A stretch of DNA of 63,630 nucleotides, filler included, from Dugesia japonica (taxonomy: Eukaryota), in the NCBI GenBank assembly GCA_001938525.1. It is 6 parts of 6 records of this genome, joined end to end, with 100 filler letters (N's around TTAATTAATTAA, not from the genome) between each part and the next. Parts side by side here need not be neighbours in the genome. Positions count along the whole stretch, not along the records: positions 44,414 to 54,879 come from MQRL01579621.1; 5 more parts are not named here. One strand, 5' to 3'. This document shows, piece by piece, positions 13,400 through 63,630 of the stretch. Both the position numbers and the translations under genes were made by a program. The notes below the pieces were generated by a model. The model searched no databases. It was not told the origin of the DNA and saw nothing but the letters and a program-made list of their open reading frames with translations. The first letter of the stretch is position 1. Each line of letters begins with the position of its first letter.

Positions 13400-15025
13400 T
13401 TTTAATCAAGTTAACAATAATATTGACCCATCTTATTGTTATTCGGCACCTTAATTAATATTAGTAGCAGGATTAAAATATACAGCTGTAAAATAAATAT
13501 ATTATAAATAAAAAACTTTTGATATGTTACTATTTTTTGAACAGGGAATTAGAGGTGGAGTTTCATCAGTTTTAGGAGACAGATTTGTAAAATGTAATAA
13601 TAGGGAAACTAATTCAAGATTAAATTTTATGAATGAATTAGGTTTATTAAATTTAAATTTAGAACAAACACAAAAACAAGAAAATTATTTAACCTATTAT
13701 GATGAAAATTCATTATATTCATTAGCAATGTGTGAACCATTACCAACAGGAGAAAATGAATGGGATACAAATCTAAAATATGAATCACCAACAGAAGATA
13801 CAGGATGTTTATACGAAGTAGAATTAAAATACCCAGATTAAATAAAAGAAAAAACCAAATATTTTCCATTTTTACAAATAAAGAAAACCTAAATTATAAT
13901 GAATTTATAAATTATCAAAAATCAATTGCTTCACATAATTATAAACCTATGAATAAATTATTATTAACACAATATAATAAAGCAAAATATATAATTGATA
14001 GAAGAATGTTTGATAAGTATTTCAATAATGTTATTAAAATTGTTAAAATCCATAGAAGGATATATGGAACATAATATTAAACAAAGAAAAAACCAAAATT
14101 AAGTGATGATAAATTTGGTGATTATTTCTTTAAACTATTATTTAATGCATTTTATGGTAAAACTTTGGAAAATATAAGAAATCAACAAAATATAGAAATT
14201 ATAACCGATTCAATTAAATTCAAACATTTTTTTTATCAAAATTCATTTAAAATAAAAGATTTCGATCAAAAGTTTGTTTTTTTCGTTTTTGATAGCAATT
14301 CAATTTTTCAACCTTGTCTTCTTGAGGAATTGACAATTCAAGTCAAAAGTCAATTCCTGAAATATTGAATTTTTATCAAAAACGAAAAAAAAAACAAAAT
14401 TTTGATCGAATGTTTCGTTTGAAATAACTTCTGAAAAACTATCAATGGTTATGTCCAACAATTATTCTCGCAATAATTGCAATTGTAAAATTTATTATCA
14501 AAGTCAACATTTAAAAAAGATTTACAGATGACGTAACGGCAGTTCATGTGTTAAATAATACAATCAAACTAATTTAATTATGTTGGTTTTACAATACTAG
14601 AAATATCTAAATTAATTATGTACAGATTTATATATGATTATATAGATAAAAAATTAGATAATTATAAAATCCATTATACTGATACCGAAAGCATATTTTA
14701 GAAATCAAAATCCCATTCAATTAATCAATCTAATAAGAAGTTTCAAAATTTGGTGAATTTATACATAAATCAGATTTATTGAAATTTAAAGATGAATTAA
14801 ATAGTAAATGTATATATGAATCTGTATATATTTAGCTCCAAAAAGTTATTATTATAAAACTTTAGATAAATATTAAATAAAATAATAACAAAGGATAATT
14901 ATAAATTAAATTCAGATCATATAAAAATGATAAAACAAATTAAAGAACCATTAAATTCATTTCAAGATAAACTTATAATTCATTCTTTACCAATTCACAC
15001 TTTACCACTTGGTTACTTTTCTTGA
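13400..15025 (+). pseudogene. Polinton/Maverick protein-primed DNA polymerase B (pPolB), decayed
   Basis: DPSYCYSAP; EQGIRGGVS; YYDENSLYSLAMCEPLPTG; FFKLLFNAFYGKTLENIRN; YVGFTILEISK; HYTDTES; FKDEL; LPLGY. Confidence 0.9.
14230..14490. mobile_element. Palindromic MITE/foldback-like insertion within pPolB
   Basis: 14261-14294 and 14374-14410 are inverted copies; the end aacaattattctcgcaataattg is the reverse complement of 16667-16689. Confidence 0.65.
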
Positions 15026-21642: not shown

Positions 21643-22370
21643 CTAAAACCAAATAATTTCATACTTTGAGATAGACTGGATTGAGCATGATTGGGTTGGA
21701 TTGATCTTGATTGAGGAAAAGTATTTCAATAAATAATGCCCGTATGGAAAACTTAAATTTTTCTCTGTCCATACTCGCTTATCATCCTTATTAGACAGAG
21801 CTATCTTTTTATTCTTAATACTACAGAGCTGATGATTTTTCGATGTTTTTCGAAATTGCTCTACTGAGACCGTTCCATTATTATTATAACAGTCAAGGTA
21901 TGACTGGTGAAAAATGTCAGTACCTTTTAATGTTATACCCTTAGCTTTCATTGATTCTTTCTTGCTAAGTAGGTTATAACAATTTGGTCTCAAAAATATC
22001 TATTCTTGATATTTCTCCCCTTTGTTCTCAACCTTGAACTTGCCAATTACTGAATTTAAATTGTTGATGTAAAGAAAATGGCTTGTGTTGTAATTGGATG
22101 TATCTTATAGCTGATCCTTCTTCATTAATCCGGTCAGTTTTTCCAAACGTATGTCTACCACTTCTAAGAAAAAACTATCGGTATCACCGGCAACTATATT
22201 TATCTTACGATTCTCTTCCTGTCTGTACTTTTCCAACTCAATGTACGGTAATCGGTACATTCTTAACTTGCTTAAGTCAAATACAGTCTGCCTATTTAAC
22301 TCGGTCGATCCAAACAAACAATATCTTTGTTCAACCAAACAGCTATTAGATCATCATCAATTTTAGTTGT
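21643..22370 (-). pseudogene. Polinton pPolB C-terminal half (AGDTDS variant)
   Basis: QTVFDLSKLRMY; NIVAGDTDSFFL; GKFKVENKG; LRPNCY; KAKGI; KIALSNKDDKR; PYGHY. Confidence 0.9.
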
Positions 22371-33189: not shown

Positions 33190-33753
33190 AAACAAAGGTT
33201 TGTCATTTACACTTTTAGAAATATTAAAACTTAATTTTTCTCTTTTTTTCAACCCTATTTAACAAAAATAACTAATCAGCGCTAATAATGTGTCCCAAGA
33301 ATTTAATTTCCCGTCTCAGAAATTTGTTTTTCTCCGGATTTACCCTCAAACCTGCTATATTCATTAAGACTTCCTCCACTATATTCAAATGTCTTTTCTC
33401 ATCTCTCGATTATATCAATATATTACCTAAATAAGCAAAGGCTTCTTTAATTCTTTGATCTAGTGCGCTACTTTCTACCTACTTAGGTGCAATCTATTAT
33501 TCGCAAAATGGATCTGTTAAATGTAGATCGAAACAATGGTATTATTGTGAAGGAATTTAAAGATTCATATACGTTTATAACCTCTGTGTTGGCTTTGGAC
33601 TTTGAAGTTGATCAATCAAAATTGCTAAAATCGGAAAATCTTTAGTTGAAAGTGCGTTTCCATAAAGCATTGACGGAATCAGTGACAATCTATGTACATG
33701 AAATACTTGATTCGGATATTCAAATTACCAAGTATGGAGTAGTATGTACGTAA
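33190..33753 (+). pseudogene. Polinton major capsid protein (double jelly roll) C-terminal remnant
   Basis: NNGIIVKEFKDSYTFITSVLALDF...KSENL*LKVRFHKALTESVTIYVHEILDSDIQITKYGVV*, matching the Polinton MCP C-terminal pattern. Confidence 0.65.
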
Positions 33754-33757
33754 TAGT

Positions 33758-34212
33758 ATGCAAGTATATATTGGAAAGAATGTCCTTTTTATTGACTATG
33801 AAGCCTTTCAAGATAACGACTTTAAATATTTAATTAAAACAATTGTGTATAATGGATAGGAATAATATTCTCAAACCATTCTTTTATATGTTTATGATGA
33901 CTGAATCTATTGGAAGTTTTACGAAATGAGCTCAAATAAGCAACCAGTATTTGAGACTTTGACGTCATCATCTTAGATGATTGATGGTGACTGCAAATTT
34001 GATCCAACTCATATTCTCAATGACTTGCAAGCAATTTCTAATTATGCATTTTCATGTTCTTGATCATGTAAATGGAAAGAAAATCAACACTCTGAAACTC
34101 TTTTCCCTAAGTCTTCGATTAGTCAATTATAATATAAACGATTATGAGCAACTGTCTATATCAGAAAATATATTATGTCCATATTTTAATCATGGATATT
34201 ACTGTGCTTTCA
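33758..34212 (+). pseudogene. Polinton DEDD/DnaQ-like exonuclease-family accessory gene
   Basis: FIDYEAFQ...YLIK.LCI...FYMF...NQYL..RHHL.*IDG...NGKKINTL...CPYFNHGYYCA (frameshifted). Confidence 0.6.
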
Positions 34213-35660
34213 CACCATCTCTCGACAACGGACTCAAGACAGCATTAATTGTATTGAAACTTGCATCTGTATCTAATATAATTTGGCTTTGAGGATTTGG
34301 AAATGTCAAGATTGGAGAGCTACGTAATTTTGGCTTCATTAGTTTAATGGTGCTATCAAACTTGAATAATAGCCTCTTTTACTTTATTAATAATGACATC
34401 ATTTGTTTCATATTACCTATATTGCACATAACTTGCAAGCCTTTTTTAGTTACAAATAGAAGAATTTTTTAATATGCTAGATAAGATTAAACCTCAATAA
34501 ATAATAAATTATTCTTAATAAACTACTTCATTCATAAACATTTTATTTTTGTCATTACTAATTTCTTGACGTTTGATATGACTAGGTTTTAATTTATTAT
34601 TAAAATGATCGTATATTCCACAAATTTCAATTAATAATCGTAATATTTCTAAATGATTTTTTATGTCAAAATGTCAAGCATTATTTCTCAACTTTTTCTA
34701 CATAAAGGTAAAAATAAAATTTTGGTAGGCTTCATTAATTTTTATTTTTCTGTTCAAATTATTATCGGTCATATGAAATTATAAATACTATAAATGATTG
34801 ATCACACACGGTTTTCTTTGATTTTTATGTCATAAACGTTTTCCTTAACCATCTCTTATCTGATATAATTGAATTTCTATTTATACTTATTTTATTTATG
34901 AATCACCCAATGAAATAATTGAAATATTTTTTCATGTTAATATTTAAATGAACTATAAATGACACCACATATGAATTACACCATTTAACTTCCGCTTCTA
35001 ATTTCCATATTTGCATACCATGCAACTCGTCTCTTCGAGTATATTCTATATCATCTTTTTTTAGGTGCGCCACTTTACAACAAACATGATAAGGAGTGAT
35101 AATTACATTCCCAATTCATGGTTGAGACTAGCTGGCTGTTTATTTTAATTGACAGTGTGATTGAAGCGCCGAATTTGCGACTGAGTTGACTTCTGAAGAG
35201 TTTTTGGTTTCTTGAATTAGCCAATGATATAATCGAAATATTTTTTTCATGTTATGATTAACATGATCTATGCATTATGATTATTTAGTACTTAAATCTT
35301 TTACAAAAATATATTAGCTATTCCTAGAAGCTTTTCTTATTAATCTATTACAATCAACCAATAATATATTCATTTTAACACTATTATTAAATAAAATAGT
35401 GTTTTTAGAACTGATTGCATGACCGAGATATTTGAGTTTTGATACACTAAATATACATTTTCACGATTAATTTTGATACCATATTGCACAATTAGTACCA
35501 ACACATTTTGTAAATGTTTATCATGAAAATTTTGTGCCTGGCCAAAATTTAAAATGTCATCAAGATAAATAAGCACTCCAGAAAATAACATGTTGCTAAA
35601 AATTTATGCATTAATTCTTGAAATGTTGTTAGAGCGATGCATAATCCGAACGGCATAAGT
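34205..35660 (-). mobile_element. Gypsy RT/RNase H fragments with intervening insertions
   Basis: LMPFGLC; VLIYLDDIL; SSPILTFPNPQSQIILDTDASFNTINAVLS. Confidence 0.75.
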
Positions 35661-37166: not shown

Positions 37167-37500
37167 TCCAAATTTAAAACAATTTGTATAAAATTATAAT
37201 GTAAAAAAATAATAAAATTCACTTTCTTTATCAATTTATAGATTATTTGGAATTCTTTTATTTTCTTCAATTATATTTTCAAATGCATTTGTTATTGAAG
37301 TTCCTGTTTTTCCATTACATATTTTTACAAATGTATATCTTGAATGTAAATCAATAACTTTTAAAATTATTTTCGTGTTTAAAAATATTAAGTCTGCAGA
37401 CCAAGTTTCATCAATTTCATTAATTATAACTTTTAAATATTTTTTTTGTTTTCTATATTCTTTATGTTATTCATTAGTTAAATTGTCTGATTCTGAATTT
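37160..37500 (-). pseudogene. Polinton c-integrase (second lineage), N-terminal part
   Basis: LTNE*HKEYRK...VIINEIDETWSADL...VIDLHSRY...NAFENII...IPNNL*IDKESEFY. Confidence 0.85.
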
Positions 37501-37505
37501 AAATT

Positions 37506-37850
37506 TTAATTTCCACCAAATAATATATTTCCTTTCATTAATAATTTAACTAAAGTAGTTTCTAATGTTTCCTATATTGTAGGATTAATCCTATTATTTA
37601 AATCATGAATCACATTTACATCTTCAATATGTCTATCTCTAATATCTTTTGACTTGTATGCTAAATCATGTCTAAATGTTGATTTATTGGTTCATTTCCT
37701 GGTTTTCGATAATTATTTTCATCTTTTTGCTAAATTTGTTCCTGGTTCAGTATAGTGTCTTTCTCTTTTATATGTTTCTTGTGTAAATGGTTTTATTGCA
37801 GCTAAAATTATTATTTTGTAAGTCACTTTCTTATTTCTTAGTTCAATATT
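37506..37850 (-). pseudogene. Parvovirus-VP1-type phospholipase A2 domain gene
   Basis: HYTEPGTNL (YxGPG Ca-loop), FRHDLAY (HD catalytic motif), RDRHIED...; directly upstream of the integrase. Confidence 0.8.
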
Positions 37851-38204
37851 TTAGATTTATATATTTATATTTTATTGTAGTGTATATAAGTAAATGTCCA
37901 TTTTATATAGTGATAATTAATCTTTGGAAACATCATATCCTTTAACATTTTCAACAAATAAAATTTTACTATTTGATATTTATAATTCTACATATTTTTC
38001 TTCGAAAATACGCCAATATATATCACCTTTAAAATTTCTTTCTTTTATTATGTTACATCTACAATAATTATTGATAATTTTGAATCTTGGGAAGATACAT
38101 TATTACAAAAAATTGGGTAAAATGTTTTCTATTCTATTAATAATAAATGTGGTTGATTAAAAAATTCTAAACATGTTTCAAATCCAGATTTAATTTTTTT
38201 AAAC

Positions 38205-38790
38205 AAGAAAATAATTTTAACAGTTATTAAAAATCAAAAATTCTAGATATGCATTTGTTGAAATATGTAATGGAAAAACAGAAACGTCAATAACAAATGC
38301 ATTTGAAAATATAATTGAAGAAAATAATAGAATTCCAAATCATTTATGGGTTGATAAAGCAAGTGAATTATTTAATATTTAAATCGTTTTGTAATGAAAA
38401 TATTATTAATTTATATTCACTTGAAAATGAAGGTAAAGCAGTTATAATAGAAAGATTTAATAAAACATTTAAAAATAATTTTTTTTAATATTTCTTCAGT
38501 TCTAAATCAAAAATGTGATAATAATTTTTTTACAAAAAATTGTTGATGAATATAATAATATAATTCATTCTTCTATAAATATAACTCCAAAAGAAGCTTC
38601 AGAAAATCCAGATAAAATAAAAGAAATAATCGAAAATCATCATACTGAATATGATTTTAAACAAAAATTTAAAATTAGTGATCGAGTTAGAATATTTATA
38701 TATAATAATACATTTGAAAAAGGATTTACAGCTAAATGGACAAATGAAATATTTATAATATCAAAAGTATATAATACAAAAACCAATAAT
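38205..38790 (+). pseudogene. Polinton c-integrase (second lineage), inverted second copy
   Basis: IPNHLWVDKASEL; NEGKAVIIERFNKT; YNNIIHSSINITP; KFKISDRVRI; FEKGFTAKWTNEIF; reverse-complement match to 37200-37370. Confidence 0.9.
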
Positions 38791-39519
38791 TTCGATAGGA
38801 AACAGTACGGTATGAATAACCCATTTAAAAATCAACAAACCTTATACATAAAGAGTTTTAAAGAAAAAACAAATAAATTTAACTATTATAATTCAAATTA
38901 ATTAAATTTAATTTAAAATAATTTAATTTCTAAATAATTTAAATAATAATGTTCTAGAATCAATTTTATAAACGTAACAATGTATTTAATTAATAGACAC
39001 TTACATTAAATCATATATAAACTGAACCATTAATTCATTATTTATAATTTTACTAAGGGAAATTTACCCATACTAGTATTCAAGTGTGAAAAACAAAGAA
39101 ACTACTTCAAGCATGAGCTGCTTTTCTTTTAGAGAACAATCAATTATACTTTTCAAGTAATATTTGATTTGCTAATTACTTCATAAATACATTTTTTATT
39201 AGGACCTTGTAAAAGCTAAACTTTGTGTTTACGATTTATACATATCTGATATCAGTGAGAATGATCAAAAGACTCTTAATGAACTATTCGTAAGAATCAA
39301 TGAACACATGAAAATTTAAGATGCAAGATTTATTAAAGAAGATAGTTTTCAAGAAAGTAAATCAAAGATTACAATTGAAATTATTGGTTACAAAAATTAG
39401 AAGACATAGTAAAACCAATATGGAAAGTTAATTCAACTCATGAGATTGAATGGAAATTTATTGAATAAGTATTGGTATAATTAATTAATTTATATTTGTT
39501 ACTTTTATAAATCAAAACA

Positions 39520-40700
39520 AGTTTAAAATTATAACGGTTATTTTAATCAATTCCATATTACTCGATGTTCCCATGGCTGTTCTGTGTGACATTTTGCAAC
39601 TGGAAATATAATATTTAAATAAAGTATTAATACAACAAATATTAGTTAAAGTATTTGGATATTTTTCCATTTTCCATTCATATTGTTGTCTTATTGCAAT
39701 TGCTAATTCCTTCAGTTTTATATTCATTTGAGTTTGATTTATTGATTCTGGACTAGAATAACTTAAATCATAATTGCATTCTTTGATTAATGATTCTTTT
39801 ACATTCTAATAAAACCCATTTGTAACCGTTCATAATTCGAGATTATGAAATTTAACTTAATTATATATTAGTAATATCATGTTTTCCAATGGATCTGGAG
39901 TAAATTTCAGTTTATGTATTAATTCTATTCTTCTAAGTATTATCCATGACTATCCATGAATTGGATTTGAATAAGAGCTTGTATTGTTTCTTCTTTTGTA
40001 ATGTTTCACAATTTGAAGGGATATGATCTCTATCATATATTAAAATACGATCTTAGTAGATTTTCGAATTGGAATATTTCTTGTATTCAAATTACTAGGT
40101 TTTGAGTTTGACTGCACATATAGATAAAACTACTGTAAAACCTATAGATAGCTATTAATTTGTAAATTTTTCTTGTTATGGGGCCGTTAGAACAATAAAT
40201 TCAAACCCATTAACATCAAATGAGTTTAAGGATTAAGACTACGTGAATTTGTCCTTATAAATTTGCAACTAGTTTAGATGCTTCAGTGAAAACTCAGATA
40301 ATGCCACCTATTTTGGATGGAGTTACTTAGGAAAATTATTTGAAAGCTCTTGACATGTGGAATTTTGCAGTTTTAAGAATACTTTAGACTATATGATGGT
40401 ATATTTGAAACTTGATGTTATTTTTTTAGCTAACTTCTTTCAGCAATTTTGAGCTAATTCTTTAGAACATAATAGGTTAGAACCACTTAATTTCTTTGGT
40501 ATTCCTGGAATAAGGTGGGCTTCTGTCTTGATTTCTTTAAATGTATCCATCAAGCTTTTGACTGACAATGATATGTACACTTTCTTTGAAGGTGAAATTA
40601 GATGAGGTCTTATTTTTATAAATAAGTATTATGTGGCTATAGATGTTAATACTGAGCTTATATATATATATTAATAATTTATATGGTTAAGCTTTAAGCC
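39520..40700 (-). mobile_element. Heavily decayed gypsy-like pol (RT thumb/RNase H/integrase)
   Basis: Scattered motifs (FTEASKL, GYKWVLL, HRTAMGTS) among many stops. Confidence 0.4.
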
Positions 40701-40849
40701 AAAGGATTTCTTGATAGAACTTTGAATGAATTCATTCTGATTTGGAAAAACTTCTTGTTGATTGTATGACTTAAGACTTAGATTCGTTGTCTTATGGTTA
40801 AAGTTTTGAAGTTGATCTGTTGATTTCTAACGATATGCATAAGTATTTA

Positions 40850-41132
40850 AGTGGTTTTCCAGTTGGTGCTGAACAACCATTAGTACCAAGTACAACATTT
40901 AAAAAAATACTACTTACAAATCACCCAAAGAAAGCTATGCAATACACTGGAGACTACTTGAATTGTATTTACAAATTGGAGTTTAAGTGACTTAAATTCA
41001 TAGGGCTGTAAAATTTGACAAAGACTTTATCTTTAAGACTTATGTAGATGAAAACACTGAATTAAGATCTGAAAACAAAAATTAGTTAGATAAAATGTAT
41101 CATAAACTACTCAAAAATAGTCTTTACTGTAA
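40850..41132 (+). pseudogene. Polinton pPolB fragment (motif B region)
   Basis: YAIHWRLLELYLQIG...IHRAVKF...YVDENTELR...HKLLKNSLYCK. Confidence 0.8.
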
Positions 41133-41819
41133 GCGCTTTATTTCATTAGGATTAGTTTTACACCATTTATCTAGGCAATTCGGTTGTTTGTCTGAATTCA
41201 TTTGTGCGGCATATATATATTCGTTAAAACTGCAATAAATTCAAATACTTCTTTGGTAGCAAATAGAAAATAAAGACTATGCGATTCGATAAAACTGAAA
41301 ACCTCAGGATTGCAGGCACTGCTAATTCCAGAACTGTTTGAAGAACTTGCTTCACTATCTCATAATATTCGGCGTCGTTTAGAGTAAGCTTGTGAAAATA
41401 AATCGTCAGACAAATTTATAGAGACATGATCTTTACTTGTCGCCAAATTAGTTTTAAGGCTCACTAAGAAATTAAATACAGGATGCAAAAATTAATATAT
41501 CAGTTTAAAGCATAATAGTTATTACTACCTAAATTTAAAATAACTCGCCTCGACAAACAAAACCATTTGCCACTACAAAATATCTCGCCAAAAATTACTT
41601 CGCTATATATATATATATACAGTTAAGGACAAAGTAATAACAACTATTTGAAAACTAATTAATAGAATGTACTAAATAGATATAAATATTAATATAATGA
41701 TAGTAATGTAGGTAAAATAGATATTGACAACCTTAATCTTTAAAAATTCATAATTGGTTCTAAAGTGCATTTTTTGAAGCCACTTAAATTTTGCATCGAA
41801 TTTTTGTAATGAGTAACTA

Positions 41820-42702
41820 AAACCAATAAGGACGAATCCAAAAGCCCCAGCGGTTTTCGAGACGTAGAGAAGTTCATAAAAGCAGCTCAAAATGTGAAAA
41901 GAAAGACAAAAAAGTGGTTATCTGGAAAGTTAGCGTACAGTCTGAACAAGCCGATGTTGAAAGGATTTTCAACAAGAGCATATAAAACATGGTATTGATA
42001 ATTTATGGCAAATTGATCTAATGGCGATGATTCTATATTCATAAATTAATAAAGGATAAAGTATATTTTTAGATTTACAAGAGCAGTTACTGTTGAATCA
42101 AAATCTGCTAATGATATGGAACCAGCAATCAAGTCAATGTTTAAAAATGAACATTTAGATAATTTACAAACGGATTTGTGTAAGGAATTTTACAATTACA
42201 AGGTGAAACAACTTATGAATCAATGGTTAAATACATAAACCATTGTAGTGTATGCTCTCAGTATAAAGCTGCACATATGGATAGATTTAATCGTACATTG
42301 AGAGATGCAGTGAAAAGGCATTTTGTACATGTTGTTAATAAGGCCTGGATAAATGTTTTAGCGAAACCTATTTATAAATATAATCATTCTGGTCATAAGA
42401 GATTAAATGGAGCAAGACCGGTTGATGTAAGTACAAACAATCAATTAAAATAATGTTCATCGCAAAAACATTCAAAAACAAATAAAAATCCAAAGTATAA
42501 AGTTGGCTATTATATGAAAATCTCGAAAATATCAGCTTCACCATGTATCAAGAATTTCAATAGTAATTGTAGTGATGAAGTGTTTCAAATAACAAAAATC
42601 AACATGAAACAAAATTCGGTCATGTATGTCATTAAAGATTATGAAGATAATATCGTGCGAGCAAATTTCTATGAGCAAGAATTTTAAGTTATTCCACCAC
42701 CA
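41820..42702 (+). pseudogene. Polinton c-integrase (first lineage), decayed paralogue of 52600-53606
   Basis: KKWLSGKLAYSLNKP; DNLWQIDL; NLQTD..KEFYN; KAAHMDRFNRTLR; clear nucleotide similarity to 52600-53480. Confidence 0.9.
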
Positions 42703-43369
42703 GATTTTACCTTTGTATATCAAACATTTCCTATATATAGAAAATTCTAAAATTCAATACATTTGCTGTTCTTCTCAATAAGGACACAGTTTGCTTAGAT
42801 CGTCCGAGCTACATAGGACAAACTGTACTTGACCTCTCAAAATTGAGAATGTACAAACTTCAGTACATTGAGTTGGACAAGTATATGAAGTAATTTAAAT
42901 GTAAAATTAATATTGTAGCCGGTGATAAGGATTTTTTTTTCTAGAAAGAGAAAGTACTAAATTAGAAAATTAACAGCAAGTATGTGGAGAGATCAGCTAC
43001 TTGGTACTTCAAATTATGATAAAGATCATACTGTTTATAGTAATACGAAAATTTAAAGATGAGAATAAAGGGAACAAGTATTAAGAATGGGTAATTTTGA
43101 GGCTGAAATGCTAACGCCTGCTCGGAGAAAAGAACAGCATGAGACCCAAAGGTATATCATTGAAGAACACAGAAATTTCTCATCAGTCTTACTTTGACTG
43201 TTTTAATGAGAACAAATCGGTCTCGGTGGAACAATTTAGAATAACCAACAAAAATCATCAATTGTATAGCATTAAGTTAAACAAAAGAACACTGACTAAT
43301 ATAGATAATAAGCGCGCATGGGTAGGTATAAATACTAGTGTCCCATATGGTCATAATATTATTAAGTAG
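42703..43369 (+). pseudogene. About 55-bp minor-capsid fragment fused to pPolB C-terminus (internal deletion derivative)
   Basis: 42703-42759 matches 53732-53788; then LDRPSYIGQTVLDLSKLRMY, NIVAGD, TSNY, FKDENKG, PKGI, DNKR, PYGH. Confidence 0.85.
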
Positions 43370-49664: not shown

Positions 49665-49936
49665 ATCAATAATTATCGAAAACCATGCTCAACAACTATT
49701 AATATTTTGATGCTAGTAGATAGATAATTTAAAACTTTCGATACAATGTCTATAAAACTAGTATAGATTTATTATTTTAATGAAGTAATAAAAGTGATCA
49801 AAAATAGTTTGTATTCGCTTGACATTGCATTTGTTACCTATATATCAGAAAATAAATTATAACTATATTATTAACTATAAACAAATGTATAAAAAATATT
49901 AATTAAATTGATACGTTTAAGCAAGCCACAATTATA

Positions 49937-50285
49937 ATGGAATTAAGAAATGATACTGTATATCAAATTATTGGACCTATTGGTAGTGGAAAAACTATGT
50001 TTGTGTCTAAATTATTGAAAATAAGTTTATTTAAATCAGAATTTAAATAAATCTATTGGCATAGTGGATCAAAAAAGGAGCATAGATCTACTTAATCGGA
50101 AAATTTTAATATTCATATCACAATTATTAATGAATTCCATAAAAATTAGAGCAAGAGTCAAAAATCAAGCCACTTGATTGTTTTTGATGATCTGCACCAG
50201 GAAGGTAATAAGAAAAAGTACTTTAACTGTTTATTCACAAAGGAATCAAGACATTGTTATGTGATTGTGATATTCATTACAAAAA
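49937..50285 (+). pseudogene. Polinton packaging ATPase, truncated second copy
   Basis: MELRNDTVYQIIGPIGSGKT; IVFDDL; LFTKESRH. Confidence 0.9.
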
Positions 50286-50733: not shown

Positions 50734-51160
50734 CTAATAATAAAACTTTACCTCTTTCAGATATTTCTTCTCCACATATATTTGATAGTGTAGTGTCTTT
50801 ATACCGAGTATTACAATTTTTCCCGATGAAAATACGTTAACACATACAGGATCACACAATGTTAGATGTTGGATCAAACCAACATTTTGTCCCTTTTGCT
50901 AATTTATACAAATTAATAATTTGTCCCAGATTGATTACAATTGTTAATAATTGCAAACAAATATCCTTAATATCATACTGTAATGTTTCCATTTCCAACG
51001 GTTTTTTACATCCCATTATTCAAAAGTTTCCTGATTTAAAGAATATTAACGTATATTTCCCACTTTTGTCAACAAATTGAGAACGTTTACCGATAGGAAA
51101 CTTCATTTTGCTTGTTACATCTTGCGACACTCTACCTATGTAATTAATATTAACCAACAT
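50734..51160 (-). pseudogene. TATA-binding protein (TBP)-like gene in the Polinton cassette (one nonsense codon, one frameshift)
   Basis: MLVNINYIG...YTLIFFKSGNF*IMGCK...ICLQLLTIVINLGQIINLYKLA...CWFDP / PVCVNVFSSGKIVILGIK; two direct repeats matching TBP TALIFSSGKMVCTGAK and VLLIFVSGKVVLTGAK. Confidence 0.8.
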
Positions 51161-51276
51161 TATTAATGATAATTAATATATGAGAGTGTATTTATATATA
51201 TATTTTCCGAAATAAAATTAATCGATTCAAAGACAAATAGTATTATAAACAATGCATTAAATTTAAAATTTATAAA

Positions 51277-51878
51277 ATGGAATTGAGAAATGATGCTGTT
51301 TATCAAATTGTTGGTCCAAGTGGTAGTGGGGAAACCTTGTTTGTATGCAAGTTACTAAAATCAAATTTATTTAAATCAAAATTTAACTAAATATATTGGC
51401 ACACAGGTGCAGATGAAGAGCATGAGTTAACACAATCAGAATTTTGCAACATTAAAATTATTAATGGATTTGATAAAAAGTGGCGCAAGAGATTGAAACC
51501 GGGCGATGTTATTGTAGTAGATAATCTGCATCAGGAGGCAAACAAAGAAAAAGACTTTAATAATTTATTTACAAAAATATGACTGGTATTCATTACACAA
51601 AATTTATTCCATTAAGAAATAAGTTATAGGACACGTAATTAAAATGTACAATACTTAGTTATATTTAAAAATCCGAGAGATCAAACAGTTGTCGATTTTC
51701 TAGCAAGCCAGGCGTACCCTAATAATAGGCAATTTTTTATTGAATCATTTCAAGATGCAACAATAAATCCACATGGTTATATTTTTCTCGACTATACACA
51801 CAATGTCTAGATAAACTGAGGGTGAAAACTGATATTTTCAATCCTGAAGGTGTTAATGTGTATAAACAAACTAAGTAA
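51277..51878 (+). pseudogene. Polinton A32/FtsK-like DNA packaging ATPase
   Basis: GPSGSGET Walker A; IVVDNL Walker B; FITQNLF; NVQYLVIFKNPRD; QAYP; HGYIFLDY; LRVKTDIF. Confidence 0.95.
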
Positions 51879-51894
51879 ATATTATACTTTGAAA

Positions 51895-52098
51895 ATGACG
51901 AAATTTAAAAAATTTGTAGTTGATCAGATTAAAAGTATTTCAAAAATAAAATGTGGTAAACGAACAAAAAAGCGTATTGTAAAAAAGAAAAAAGGTGGAA
52001 AGAGGAATCAAAGTAAACAGTTAAACATTTTTAAGAAACTATCGAAAATGTATGGTAAGAAAATGAAGAAAATAAACGGAAAATGGATATCATTATAA
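51895..52098 (+). CDS. Very lysine/arginine-rich 67-aa protein, candidate DNA-condensing core protein
   Basis: MTKFKKF...KRTKKRIVKKKKGGKRN...; open frame; located between ATPase and other structural genes. Confidence 0.5.
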   Translation: MTKFKKFVVDQIKSISKIKCGKRTKKRIVKKKKGGKRNQSKQLNIFKKLSKMYGKKMKKINGKWISL

Positions 52099-52133
52099 AC
52101 AAATACGGGTAATTTTTATTATTAAAATATAAA

Positions 52134-52457
52134 ATGAAAATACAACGAAGTAATCCAATTTTTACATCATTAATTCAATCGCAAAAATCGGCGAGAATGC
52201 AAATTTTGAAATCATTTCCAACGTTTGTTTTAGATGATTTAATTGAAATTATTATAAATATTGTTCGCGGAAATGTAAATGTGAGCAATGCAAGAAAGTA
52301 AGTATTGAAAAAACATAAAAAAACACTATTAACTCTTGTAAATACAAAAAATAAGAAATTAATGAGGCGAGTAAAACGAGATAATCAAAGACGTGGCTTT
52401 ATAGCAGCATTACTACCAATTGCATTAGCAGCATTAGGATTAACTCATTTCAAATAA
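52134..52457 (+). pseudogene. Conserved Polinton/adintovirus virion protein ('GasderminX'-like) with C-terminal hydrophobic peptide
   Basis: EIIINIVRGNV...LKKHKKTL...NQRRGFIAALLPIALAALG; one internal stop. Confidence 0.7.
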
Positions 52458-52599
52458 ACAATTGTTGGTTTTATAGAAGTATTACTATTATAAAATCATT
52501 CTAAATAAACAATGGATGGTTTACAATCATTACCTAATTTTGATTTAAATTTTTCATCTAATTTTTGTAATGGGCAAGCTGAAGACGATATAGACGGAT

Positions 52600-53606
52600 G
52601 CAGAAAATCCCGCAGGTTTTCGTGGTGTAGAAAAATTGATGAAAGCAGCACAAAAATCAAAAACAAAGACAAAAAAGTGGTCATCTGGTCAACTGGCGTA
52701 CAGTTTGAACAAACCAATGTTGAAAAGATTTCCAACAAGAGCATATAACACGTTTGGTATTGATGATTTATGGCAAATGGATTTGATGGAGATGATATCA
52801 TATTCAAAAATAAATAAAGGATACAAGTATATTTTGACATGTATTGATGTATTCAGTCGATTTGCAAGAGTTATTCCAGTCAAATCGAAATCCGCAAATG
52901 AGACGGAACCGGCCATTAAATCAATGTTTAAAGATGGACATCGAGATAATTTACAAACTGATTTGGGTAAGGAATTTTACAACTCTAAAGTCAAACATCG
53001 TTTATCACACCTATCCATAAAACATTATACTGTGTTCTCTCAGTATAAAGCGGCACATGTAGAGCGATTTAATCGTACATTAAGAGATGCTTTGAANNNN
53101 NNNNNNNNNNNNNNNNNNNNNNNNNNNNNNNNNNNNNNNNNNNNNNATGTGTTGTCAAAATTGATTCATAGTTATAATCATTCAAGCCATAAAGGTTTAA
53201 ATGGAGCAAGACTGGTTGATATACGTTCAAACAATTAAAAAAATGGTTATCGCGCAAATAAGAAACCAAAATATAAAGTCGGTGACCGTATTAGAATCTC
53301 AAAAATGAGCGCATCTCCATTCATTAAAAACTTTGATAGTAATTGGAACGATGAAGTGTTTCAAATAACGAAAATCAATACTAAACAAAATCCAGTCATG
53401 TATGTAATTAAAGGTTATGAGAATAATATCATACAAGGAAAGTTTTATGAGCAAGAATTACAAGTCATTGCGCCTCCTACTATATATAGAATCGAAAAAA
53501 TAATAAAATCGAAATGAACAAAAATGAATAAACAATATTATGTAAAATGGTATGGAACTACTTGGATATTAGCATCACAGTTAGTTAATAATGAACAACG
53601 TGAATA
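52600..53606 (+). pseudogene. Polinton c-integrase with C-terminal chromodomain
   Basis: PAGFRGVEKL; GIDDLWQMDL; LTCIDVFSRFA; LQTDLGKEFYN; KAAHVERFNRTLR; YRIEKII...YYVKWYG. Confidence 0.95.
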
Positions 53607-54634
53607 ATTTCTATACACTTTTACCTAGTNNNNNNNNNNNNNNNNNNNNNNNNNNNNNNNNNNNNNNNNNNNNNNNNNNNNNNNNNNNNNNNNNNNNNNN
53701 NNNNNNNNNNNNNNNNNNNTAGCATTGTTGGATTTTACCTTTGTATATCAAACATTTCCATTATATAGCAAATCTAAAATTCAATACACAGCAACGAAAA
53801 CCATAACGAAAGAAGTGACTATAACAATTAATCATAAAGAAAAGTTGTTGAGTGTCAATGAAAATGAACATGTTGCTATACGTGATAGGACCATTATACT
53901 TATATTTTGTGAATGTCCATATGATATCATATTTGAAGATCAAAAATCTGTACGTAAATTAGGATACTTTCATAAGACTAACAGAGAGAATAACAAAGTT
54001 CTTCGTATTTACTTTACTTTATTTAATGATAATTCTCCAATAGAAAATGTAAAATTTAAAATAGAATATACTCAAGTAAGTTCTCATACTATACAGTTGA
54101 AAGATGAAATATACATAACAAAAATTGAAGAATTAAATAAATGTTTAACAGAAAGCGGTTCTGAACTATTTAATACGATTAGTCTTAAAGCAAATAATCT
54201 TTTTCAATTCTCGCTTAAAGAAGATATCAAAACTGTGACACTCGATGAAGTTTTGACAAAAACATTGGGATTGGAAAAACCGCAATATTCATCTGTAGAT
54301 ATGATGAATGGTTTAATCCAAGGTATTAGGAATCCGAAAATAATTAAGTTGCATCAACAAATGTTCATCTATAGTAATATTGTTGAACCTATAATTGTAG
54401 GAGATGTTAAGGTTCCTCTTTTGAAATCGGTATGAATAGAAAAATATGAAACTGATGAAGTAGTACAAGTAATAGTTGATAATCCAATTTATTTACCGAT
54501 TGTAATAACATGTATAAACAATATAGAAATTAATATTCAATTAATATAATTCAATTATTGAAATTAATATTAAATTAATCAAGTTTCCAAAAGATTCAAA
54601 AACACATTTAACTTTACATTTTAGAAAAAACTAA
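53591..54634 (+). pseudogene. Polinton minor capsid (penton-like) protein
   Basis: N-terminal NFYTLLPS; C-terminal MFIYSNIVEPIIVGDVKVPLL...NPIYLP...IEINI...LTLHFRK; stop overlaps the next ATG (TAATG). Confidence 0.85.
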
Positions 54635-54879
54635 TGCCTGATCCTGATATTATATCATTGTATAGTAACAGCCAAGCAGATGGAGAATTGCCTTACTTTG
54701 TAGGAAAACAGTATGGTTCCGGCTGGTTGCGAACAATAGGTAGATTTGCGCTTCCTATTCTTAAACGTATTTGTAGTTTTGGTATGAAAACTGCTCAAGA
54801 TGTTTTAGCCAACAATGGAAAAATATTACCAACATTGAAATCTAATGCATTGGCAGAACTTGGTAATGTAGTGTCTTCG
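54634..54879 (+). CDS. Polinton/adintovirus small virion protein ('Cupiennin'-like), truncated by gap
   Basis: YSNSQADGELPYFVGKQYGSGWLRTIGRFALPILKR: QxGxG motif followed by an amphipathic helix. Confidence 0.75.
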
Positions 54880-54979
54880 NNNNNNNNNNNNNNNNNNNNN
54901 NNNNNNNNNNNNNNNNNNNNNNNTTAATTAATTAANNNNNNNNNNNNNNNNNNNNNNNNNNNNNNNNNNNNNNNNNNNN
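54880..54979. other. Artificial 100-bp contig linker
   Basis: N44-TTAATTAATTAA-N44. Confidence 0.95.
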
Positions 54980-59789: not shown

Positions 59790-60265
59790 TGTTGTTCTAA
59801 TGTTTGAAAAATCTCTTTAAGCGATTCGTCATTATGTTGTTCAATTTTCAGCTTTTCTGGTTTTATTTCAAAGAATTAACTTTTGTCTTCTGGCAAGTTT
59901 TCAGCTGATATATTTTTAAGAATTTCAGCATCTGAAAAGTATTTGTCAAAGATTTCACGAGGAATATCATCAATCGATAACATCCTCGATTTCTCGTCCA
60001 GTTTACTACACTTTTCTTCCTCATTAGCTTATATCGACTTTGATCTAGTCATTTTCTTACAAATATGGTCGATTCCATTACCTAGTAAAATATCATGCTT
60101 GCTTCCCCTTACAATTGCTCTAGTACTCACAGGTACTCCTTCAATTTCCATTACTGCATTTGCAAAAGGCGCTTCATCAATTTTCCCATTAGCCAAATAA
60201 ACACTCACAGTTTCACTAGATAAATCCAAACTTTGAAGATATCGAGGTTGAATCACAGTTGTTGA
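59790..60265 (-). mobile_element. Gmr1-type gypsy protease and linker (5' part of 55535-56903)
   Basis: VYLANG...PFANAVMEI...DILLGN...MTRSK...LKIEQHNDESL. Confidence 0.65.
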
Positions 60266-61065
60266 TTTCTACAAACTATTAAATAAAGCACTATAAGTTA
60301 AGATAGTGAAGAATTTGAAGAATTGCATAGATCGATGGCTATGTAACAATTAGAAAATTTTGTAACTTATACTAGCAAAGTTACATTTAGGAAAACAATG
60401 GATATTGCAGAAGGACTGAAGACTTTATTGTTAGAAAAGATACCATATGTCTAGATAGACCGAGTTATATTGGTCAGGTCGTTATAGATTTGAGTAAATT
60501 GCGAATGTATAGGCTACGATATGAAGAGTTAGAAAAATACTGTTAATACTTTTATTGCAAAATCGATATTATTGCTAAAGATACGGATAATGTTTTCTTA
60601 TCATGTATTGGAGTAGGTAAAAACCAACTCTTGTCTCAGATGAAATCGGATGGTTCCTTAAATATAAGCAATTACACAGAATATCATCCACTCTCTTCCT
60701 ACAATGTAGCTAAAAGAATTGAATTGTTTAAAGATGAAGGAGAATGTAAAGATTATACTGAATGGGTATTCCTTAGGCCAAAATGTTATAGTTTGAAGAA
60801 AGAAGATGCTAGTGCAACAGTGAAGGTGAAAAAAATTAGCTTTAAACAAACAAATATTAATCATCAAAATTATTTACAATAAAGATGAAAATGGAGAAAA
60901 GGATCCAAATAAGGTTAGGCAGACTAGCGTTCAGTCAATAAATCAAAAGGTTTATACAATAGAGAGTAAGAAACGCGTATGGTCTTGTCTGAATGATAAG
61001 AGCTTTTGGAGCAGAAGAAATACTAGTATGGCTTATAGTTATTGTAAAATTAATAATTCAGTAAT
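60265..61065 (+). pseudogene. Polinton pPolB C-terminal half (AGDTDS-lineage paralogue)
   Basis: FYKLLNKAL; LDRPSYIGQVVIDLSKLRMY; DIIAKDTDN; SNY; FKDEGECKDYTEWVFLRPKCY; NDK. Confidence 0.85.
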
Positions 61066-62440: not shown

Positions 62441-62608
62441 TTCCAAGGGGAAATTATTGCATCAACCCCTAGAGTAAATGCGTCCTCTTTCTCTCGACAT
62501 TGTGTATTTTGTACGTTTTTGAGAGTAACTGTAAATACGGTACAACCGAACGATTATTAACTTCATGTTTTCGTATTTTTAAAGTGAAGGATTTGACACC
62601 ATTTTCAG

Positions 62609-63062
62609 TTGATAGTCAACGATAGAGTTGATATTCGTCTTTACGCTGTTTACCCAAAGAATGCAGAATGCTTTTACTTGCGAATATTGTTAATCAACGT
62701 ACGTGAACCGACAGCCTTTCAAGAATTGCCGTTTAATATGCAAACCTCCGAGAAACCAACATGCAATATCAGCAAAATTCTGGAATTGGTAAAGTGCTCC
62801 AATTATGTTCANTCATTATATGGGCGAATGTACTATGGAATACAAAAAGGCATGGGAAGCGCTTTACCGTAAACTAAAAGATTTGAGGAAGTGAACAACG
62901 TTTCAGCGGCGCACTATTTTTAATGTCTGGTGATTTTCGACAAACTTTGCCAGTTATACCACGTTCAACAGCTACTGATGAATTAAATGCTTTTCTCAAA
63001 TCATCAGTTTTATGGCGACATGTGCAAAAGTTAACTTTGAAGACCAAAATGCGTATAGAACT
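62609..63062 (+). mobile_element. Helitron Rep-Helicase fragments (PIF1-like), internally deleted
   Basis: RLYAVYPKNAECFYLRILLINV; LMSGDFRQTLPVIPR...LKSSVLWRHV..LTLKTKMR. Confidence 0.9.
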
Positions 63063-63630
63063 AGAAACAAAAAATATTGTTTATCCAATAGCACATAAAT
63101 AAACAGAATTAAAATACAAACACTTTCTTTCTTTAAGTGGAATCGCAAAGTATGGCAGGTACTCGCTAGTTTTATATAAATATATAAGCAAGATTAATTT
63201 ACTTTCAACTATCACAATAGTTTAATAATATTATTGGAATAATTAGTATTAAAAATTTGATGTACAAACATTTTTACAGCATCCATTCCATCTACATATA
63301 AATATTTGATTTTTAATTATAGTGGAAAAGTAAAATATTTCATACTTATTAGAAATNNNNNNNNNNNNNNNNNNNNNNNNNNNNNNNNNNNNNNNNNNNN
63401 NNNNNNNNNNNNNNNNNNNNNNNNNNNNNNNNNNNNNNNNNNTGTATTTCCATGAGTATTTCAAATTTTGAACGATTCTTTAACTTAAATGCATTACGTT
63501 TTTATTAATTGTATATTATAATTCAAAATACCACTATACTTTTAAATTTGGCAGCTTCCCTAATGTTCTTTCTAAGATTATTAAATATCCATTGTTTTGA
63601 AATAGTAAAATTTCAAAAACAATTGACTAA

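Follow-up and report, generated by a model that had tools for sequence, protein, structure and literature searches.

The proteins closest to the one described here are cellular TATA-binding protein (TBP; PF00352), the TBPs of giant viruses and poxviruses (NCLDV), and the TBP mimics of herpesviruses (KSHV ORF24, EBV BcRF1, and HCMV UL87). In the parts of PMC7221094 that deal with them, NCLDV TBPs are two-lobed and keep the L5.1 phenylalanines, mostly pair with a TFIIB of their own, and have a first TFIIB-contact glutamate that is ~40% conserved. The herpesvirus mimics, as they are described in PMC6541308, bind RNA polymerase II (Pol II) directly within a six-protein viral complex, and the herpesvirus late box is given there as TATTWAA. 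Polintons, Mavericks, and adintoviruses carry pPolB, RVE integrase, A32 ATPase, adenain, a double-jelly-roll capsid, penton, and, in some, PLA2 (as set out in PMC8502044), and the elements considered here are like them in this respect. In sections 3.2 and 3.4 of that paper (Starrett et al. 2021), TBP is absent from the adintovirus genes and no late promoter box is described; a partial precedent is the bare label "TBP" in its MELD-virus figure legend.

The window analyzed here, a 63,630-nucleotide stretch of DNA from Dugesia japonica, contains a broken TBP-like gene whose intact relatives form a family of short TBPs in Polintons. Like cellular TBP, these proteins have a predicted two-repeat saddle, three of the four intercalating phenylalanines, and a YEPELFP-type stirrup with both TFIIB-contact glutamates. 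Unlike cellular TBP, which has ~180 residues and an N-lobe helix, they have ~150 residues, the helix is absent in the Polinton subfamily, a proline apparently takes the place of the first phenylalanine, the specificity residues are polar and invariant, and there is no N-terminal extension. In contrast to NCLDV TBPs, their TFIIB-contact glutamates are near-invariant and no TFIIB family was found among the 86 ORFs scanned from their loci; moreover, in our 113-row tree, three canonical TBPs of large viruses cluster with the cellular ones, unlike the Polinton family. The likeness to the herpesvirus mimics is one of analogy, in that both systems would combine a viral TBP-fold factor with a modified TATA before structural genes. 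BcRF1, however, is 577 aa long (BFVD), as opposed to a bare 150-aa domain with a host TFIIB surface, and the Polinton TBP has 10 to 13% identity to BFVD herpesvirus entries in structural alignment; it is not a member of the herpesvirus TBP-mimic family. Polinton literature searched by term gave no mention of TBP or TATA, and our literature search, outside which lay subscription journals, Repbase, and the supplementary tables of Starrett et al., returned no account of the short-TBP family or of the YATAAACR box described below. Judged by its sequence, this would be a viral TBP of a new sort, which has the TBP fold but fails two canonical features and comes with a testable late-promoter model.

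A broken TBP-like gene in a Polinton cassette

An earlier note on this DNA had reported a minus-strand frame of ~142 codons with two-repeat TBP motifs, interrupted by a TGA at 51022-51020 and a frameshift near 50868. We find this frame as claimed: it opens at ATG 51160, breaks at ~50870-50855, and its second frame closes at the stop at 50736-50734. Both pieces match PF00352 as their sole Pfam family (E values of 0.015 and 0.0019) with scores of 15.6 and 18.4 bits, which are under the gathering cutoff of 22.9, and a phmmer search of the PDB with the broken first piece gave a weak TBP match only (E = 0.16). The first piece is 68 to 72% identical (E of ~1e-39) to four intact proteins of 149 to 153 aa, all four of which match PF00352 (best E = 9e-16; 55.7 bits for the protein P0005, against the cutoff of 22.9). 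Since the second piece matches the same intact protein further along (66% over 29 residues), the break in the frame reflects a short deletion within the stirrup region of repeat 2. The note had also described the gene as intronless, without an N-terminal extension, and shorter than the ~180-aa cellular core; the intact relatives have ~150 residues. As read, the window copy is a pseudogene, nonfunctional and unable to make protein; the family, structure, and residue work below was done on intact natural relatives. The features of the surrounding cassette, whose genes were located by tblastn with ORFs from related loci, are as follows.

50734..51160, minus strand: broken gene of the Polinton short-TBP family (427 nt, ~142 codons; intact relatives, 149 to 153 aa)
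about 50852-50870, minus strand: frame break in the repeat-2 stirrup region, a short deletion relative to intact relatives
51020..51022, minus strand: in-frame stop inside repeat 1
51165..51169, minus strand: TCATT initiator-like element, ~29 nt past the TATA-box start
51189..51196, minus strand: canonical TATA box (TATAAATA), 36 nt before the TBP-like ATG
51244..51251, plus strand: YATAAACR box, 33 nt before the ATPase ATG
51277..51872, plus strand: A32-type packaging ATPase, broken (stops, frame change)
51861..51868, plus strand: YATAAACR box, 34 nt before the ATG of the Lys/Arg-rich ORF
51895..52098, plus strand: Lys/Arg-rich ORF, no Pfam match
52094..52101, plus strand: YATAAACR box, 40 nt before the core-like gene
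52134..52438, plus strand: core-like gene (cluster c4), broken; a relative has a marginal adenovirus protein X match (E = 0.05)
52576..53586, plus strand: RVE integrase, broken, N gap inside (rve, E = 2e-11)
53722..54628, plus strand: penton (minor capsid) gene, broken (tblastn and a relative's model)
54513..54520, plus strand: YATAAACR box, ~120 nt before the c17 ATG
54634..54879, plus strand: small gene c17, located before the major capsid gene in relatives; the window copy is cut by an N gap at 54880

The proposed cassette order of ATPase, core-like gene, integrase, and penton is confirmed, but all of these neighbors are broken and N gaps are present (53097-53146 within the integrase and 53630-53719 ahead of the penton). 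Likewise, the ATPase does lie head-to-head with the TBP-like frame, its ATG (51277) being 116 bp away, but this order is not conserved, as the two genes are divergent in 2 of the 21 ATPase-bearing loci, and we rejected the head-to-head arrangement as a conserved feature. A relative's penton model (pLDDT of 61) matches the mavirus penton (Z = 13.6, rmsd of 6.6, 242 residues aligned), its other top matches being PBCV-1, Sputnik, and adenovirus capsid chains. The Lys/Arg-rich ORF at 51895..52098 is a possible core protein, composition being the only basis for this label. The TATA box at 51189..51196 would be a host-TBP (early) promoter, in a layout that relatives share, and TCATT at 51165..51169 is presumably an initiator. 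The cassette holds 4 of the window's 14 plus-strand YATAAACR sites.

Relatives carry the Polinton gene set (RVE integrase, A32 ATPase, protein-primed PolB, adenain protease, capsid, and penton). Integrase, ATPase, and penton are also in the window, where PolB occurs only as non-adjacent remnants, and the double-jelly-roll major capsid is found in relatives only (Atlas features of 0.97; PF21738 on 15 to 65% of cluster members). No terminal inverted repeats or target-site duplications were found in five loci or in the window at 45 to 58 kb; these contigs are incomplete and the window copy is fragmentary. The window as a whole consists of AT-rich eukaryotic DNA and is dense in decayed copies. Further Polinton remnants lie at 13413-14749, 21724-22370, 33487-34223, 37218-38811, 39974-43366, and 60264-61063; they include PolB pieces, a capsid C terminus followed by c3, and PLA2 and integrase pieces. 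A second, more decayed ATPase remnant at 49876-50284 (plus strand) is 73% identical to 51273-51575 and has its own YATAAACR box 57 nt before its start. Repeated remnants at 4.2 to 5.6 kb, 11.4 to 12.5 kb, 18.5 to 20.4 kb, 25.4 to 28 kb, 46.5 to 49 kb, and 57.1 to 59.8 kb, whose translations we take to be LTR-retrotransposon-like reverse transcriptase (RT) and integrase, match one another in self-comparison, and the translation of 62597-63102 (plus strand) resembles what is presumably a PIF1/Helitron helicase fragment.

The copies in the host were viewed through reads and contigs, not through a whole genome. In a host DNA run, 30,248 contigs lie on a 2.7-kb stretch and are mostly <99% alike, a depth that is not a copy number. 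The TBP part of this stretch is covered like the neighboring genes, and the gene is therefore a regular part of a many-copy family in the host. Low-level coverage by poly(A) reads that stem from other copies extends over the TBP gene and the neighboring genes (1,513 reads in run X22, none at ≥99%, and 61 in run X21). Mate-strand bias in these reads is the same across the two divergent genes, without a flip, and no start pileups were found over the TBP gene and its neighbors. This pattern looks like read-through of embedded copies and gives no support to the promoter model in the sampled runs.

Intact relatives: family, fold, and residues

The search for intact copies that the earlier note had proposed turned up many, and the gene is not a one-off. 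A profile of the four intact proteins matched 362 of 647 candidates at E ≤ 0.001, a set that may include canonical TBPs; among the 120 matches listed, length is mostly 144 to 165 aa, and family members are single-domain proteins, mostly of 144 to 170 aa. A second profile, built from 113 of the listed family sequences, matched 57 clusters of 50% identity at E ≤ 1e-30 and 717 clusters at 1e-10, with canonical TBPs among the latter. Our metagenome scan gave 73 loci, of which 67 belong to the family and 6 are weak, with 4 of these 6 grouping with cellular TBPs. Polinton core genes are present in 17 of the 20 family loci of at least 4 kb and in 14 of the 47 shorter ones. By ORF clustering and Pfam, the neighbors at family loci are A32 ATPase (21 loci), integrase (13), capsid (10), PLA2 (9), and PolB, protease, and penton (7 each); the position of the TBP gene varies among loci, and no single neighbor is common to all. 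Among copies, dN/dS has a median of 0.17 and a maximum of 0.45 over 34 non-independent pairs (kept at 62 to 99% identity and dS of 0.05 to 2). These comparisons show that the short-TBP family is linked to Polintons and, as read from its codons, under purifying selection.

In a midpoint-rooted tree of 113 rows subsampled from 201, built without TRF2/TBPL1, eukaryotic, archaeal-like, and three large-virus TBPs lie across a branch of length 0.7 with a support of 99 from the family. The family does not nest among cellular TBPs in this tree, and its identity to cellular TBP is 18 to 27% (about 23%). Two loci (L004:869-2566 and L005:9695-11392) encode a 566-aa viral TBP-SAP fusion (Pfam) that has a long, unplaced branch in the tree.

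Scanning viral contigs with alignment A2 returned 5 large-virus TBP loci, and scanning them with alignment A1 and the capsid, ATPase, and PolB alignments gave no match; a further scan aimed at large-virus TBPs brought back nothing but the query. Alignment A2 also had no match in genome contigs, though an integrase scan later revealed two family genes there, which indicates that such pattern scans miss members. There was no match for capsid by tblastn in the phage collection. BFVD contains no close relative among the matches listed (identity of ≤21%), and the TBP clusters of the ESM Atlas have sparse taxon labels and were not used for origin. Near-complete or partial Polintons lie inside three records titled bacterial MAGs (L093, of 12.7 kb, L095, and L099), which presumably are mis-binned eukaryotic or viral DNA. 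Two tandem penton-like genes occur in one element at L017:5616-7684 and at L094:1520-3904, and L017 also has a ubiquitin-conjugating E2-like ORF at 225-719.

A saddle fold, which the earlier note had expected, is predicted for P0005 (pLDDT of 96.1, pTM of 0.85). This model matches TBP over its whole length (yeast TBP, Z = 13.1, rmsd of 2.7, 148 residues aligned), and the best non-TBP match has a Z of 6.6. Foldseek against the PDB gave 44 matches at E ≤ 0.001 with TBPs on top, and all among the matches listed are TBPs or TBP complexes. The modeling thus shows a two-repeat TBP saddle fold.

Residues were mapped onto insect TBP and counted over the 113 homologues. E96 (109 of 113, with D in the other 4) and E98 (113 of 113) correspond to human E284 and E286, which are reported to bind TFIIB and to vary among known viral TBPs (PMC7221094), and both glutamates are present in 71 of 99 distant relatives; the alignment shows that the two TFIIB-contact glutamates are retained in the family. 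Both FxSG phenylalanines are retained, as the note had stated, but TBP has four intercalating phenylalanines. Three are kept in the family (F41 in 113/113, F100 in 112/113, and F116 in 113/113), and the first aligns with P26 (112/113), in a stretch where alignment confidence is low, so that one of the four appears to be lost. At yeast I194, L205, and V203, positions where changes alter TATA specificity according to PMC1636458, the family has R104 (112/113), N114 (113/113), and C112 (113/113), respectively, the pairing of C112 with V203 being dependent on gap placement. The most conserved residues that lie on the DNA face and yet are unlike TBP are R47, M49, R104, C112, N114, and P26. Aligned in this way, DNA-face residues are shown to be replaced by invariant new ones, and their replacement at specificity positions points to sequence-specific binding of a different site.

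The linker between the repeats has 17 to 26 residues, versus 32 in cellular TBP, and the P0005 model has no long N-lobe helix (H2). In cellular TBP, according to PMC7221094, the basic patch on which TFIIA, TAF1, Mot1, and NC2 dock lies mostly on this helix. The model shows the loss of the N-lobe helix in the short-TBP subfamily; because more distant relatives have longer linkers, this loss is not family-wide.

A YATAAACR box before virion genes

On the sense strand, YATAAACR is found ≤120 nt upstream of 57 of 65 virion-module genes (de-duplicated), while it is present in 0 of these 65 regions in antisense and before 0 of 49 TBP genes. By gene, it precedes ATPase in 16/17 cases, the core-like gene in 12/13, capsid in 9/9, PLA2 in 7/8, penton in 5/7, c17 in 5/5, and protease in 3/6. 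The motif was defined on the same loci where it was first counted; after dinucleotide shuffling, 1.6 of 65 regions had it on average and 7 at most, and random windows gave 6.7%. The box is also in 24 of 131 other upstream regions, 15 of which belong to integrase (10/12) and LRR genes (5/5), and it precedes c3 (6/9) and c22 (3/4), neither of which was assigned to either of the groups compared by the Fisher test. The distance from box to ATG peaks at 32 to 40 nt, with some boxes 8 to 18 or 50 to 113 nt from the assigned ATG, and 16 of 72 box sites end in G. A canonical TATA precedes 19 of 49 TBP genes, mostly 35 to 47 nt from the ATG. When TATA-like heptamers 28 to 50 nt from the ATG are compared, 37 of 49 are YATAAAC at virion genes, versus 1 of 39 at TBP-type genes, and virion genes are mostly without a second TATA box at TATA distance. 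These counts show a strand-specific box, mostly at TATA distance, before virion genes and none before TBP genes. The suggestion in the earlier note that the factor serves late structural-gene expression gains support from this shared, noncanonical box at the TATA position.

A held-out set consisted of 22 loci found by integrase alone. In two elements with a TBP gene, the box precedes 8 of 9 virion genes, and in six elements without a detectable TBP gene it precedes 0 of 17; three fragments of undecided gene status have it before 5 of 7, and the other eleven loci have no recognizable virion gene. In the integrase, ATPase, and capsid trees, elements that have both the gene and the box fall into no more than one or two clades. 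The contrast between elements with and without the gene is therefore worth roughly a single evolutionary event, and most of the controls that lack the gene are contigs that are not complete. In L080-L082, which have no detectable TBP gene, a canonical TATAAATA stands before the ATPase in place of the box.

An LRR gene downstream of the TBP gene in L030, L033, L035, L040, and L047 is behind the box in 5/5 cases, which suggests a late or virion role for it. CCAATCA/TGATTGG and TCATTATT are enriched before non-virion genes in the L006-L072 upstream regions, which is consistent with ordinary host-type early promoters; the CCAAT and initiator labels for elements upstream of TBP genes are ones that we presume. 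The box sequence TATAAACA also fits what we take to be the forkhead consensus. The YATAAACR box departs from the TATA consensus at base 7 and optionally at base 1, and TATA base 7 faces the N lobe, the lobe that is remodeled in the family. In PMC10005294, bases 1 and 7 are described as the kink positions of TATA, and the host machinery is reported to keep 27% activity on TATAAACG in one plant assay.

A late-gene model and its alternatives

Intact relatives are in Polintons with a shared box before capsid and packaging genes, which suggests that the TBP likely turns on late genes. We consider it fairly probable that the window gene is a decayed copy of a gene for a Polinton TBP-fold protein of ~150 residues that acts, through host TFIIB and Pol II, as the element's own late-gene initiation factor. 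The viral TBP would be made early, from an ordinary TATA promoter read by host TBP. At packaging and capsid genes it would bind the upstream YATAAACR box and bring in host TFIIB and Pol II, and these genes would then be expressed late, outside TFIID-type control. Loss of the N-lobe helix may free the viral TBP from control by TFIIA, TAF1, Mot1, and NC2. A more ambitious version, in which one orthogonal TBP of ~150 residues runs the complete early-to-late switch of a clade of animal-type Polintons with a private box, host TFIIB, no viral cofactors, and escape from regulators, is put forward tentatively, as its chances seem to us somewhat below even. The reading of the earlier note, that this lineage carries a viral TBP-like factor, is upheld by a TBP fold in a family that is neither nested among host proteins nor a one-off.

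The box might instead be read by host factors, either TBP acting on a weak TATA or a forkhead protein, with the viral TBP as a decoy that ties up TFIIB or TBP regulators and dampens host transcription. The TFIIB-contact glutamates are nearly invariant, as a decoy of this kind would have them, and a TBP crystal structure exists on a C(-25) TATA variant (1qn3). Furthermore, the use of TATAAACG by host systems (27% in one assay; PMC10005294) makes a host-read weak TATA and a decoy role possible. Invariant new DNA-face residues, however, would be needless in a decoy. The box occurs strictly in the sense orientation and at TATA distance, and what the protein has lost is the very surface to which TBP regulators bind. 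A forkhead reader is further at odds with the sites that end in G (16/72), which fall outside the forkhead consensus. We regard such a decoy as unlikely. Conservation of the same glutamates argues against the idea that the viral TBP binds the box as a repressor of integrated virion genes or serves replication or packaging, since a pure repressor would have no need of conserved TFIIB-contact residues. The family is integrated and of high copy number, and the box also precedes integrase, as this idea would have it, but virion genes mostly have no other TATA box at that distance, and we find this explanation very unlikely.

It is distinctly unlikely, in our view, that the viral TBP reads the box but needs viral partners, such as a TFIIB-like protein or adaptor or the polymerase of a helper giant virus, in the manner of the herpesvirus vPIC or NCLDV. 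In its favor, almost all TBP-bearing viruses also encode TFIIB by the account in PMC7221094, herpesvirus TBP mimics act in a six-protein complex by that in PMC6541308, and the conserved neighbors c2, c3, c10, and c14 have no Pfam family. Yet a Pfam scan of 86 ORFs revealed neither a TFIIB nor a polymerase family, none of the neighbors occurs at every locus, glutamates of the host type are retained, and the TBP gene is itself equipped with TATA, initiator-like, and CCAAT elements of the nuclear Pol II kind. Finally, the window gene could be a processed copy of host TBP or TRF, a one-time pseudogene that happened to land in a Polinton remnant; the window copy is indeed broken and intronless, and the tree is without TRF2/TBPL1 proteins. 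Against this, the window gene has ~72% identity to the intact short family, versus ~23% between the family and cellular TBP, and cellular TBPs lie across the 0.7-long branch with a support of 99. Polinton context is conserved, dN/dS is low, and there are many related host copies. We rejected a host TBP pseudogene origin in view of an intact, Polinton-linked family outside cellular TBPs, and consider it scarcely credible.

As to how animal Polintons might form virions on their own and time the expression of capsid genes, a dedicated TBP with a matching box would be a concrete, testable answer, and the box would mark late genes by sequence in this clade. Being a natural TBP of altered specificity, with the TFIIB surface and without the regulator helix, the protein would test which parts of TBP initiation needs, and the viral TBP and its box could serve as an orthogonal promoter-factor pair. 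If the late-gene model is true, these elements would have taken a second, independent route to the herpesvirus strategy of a viral TBP with an altered TATA, with far fewer parts. On the more ambitious version, no smaller late-transcription system would have been described for a virus, and it would give direct genetic evidence that Polinton "transposons" are autonomous nuclear viruses.
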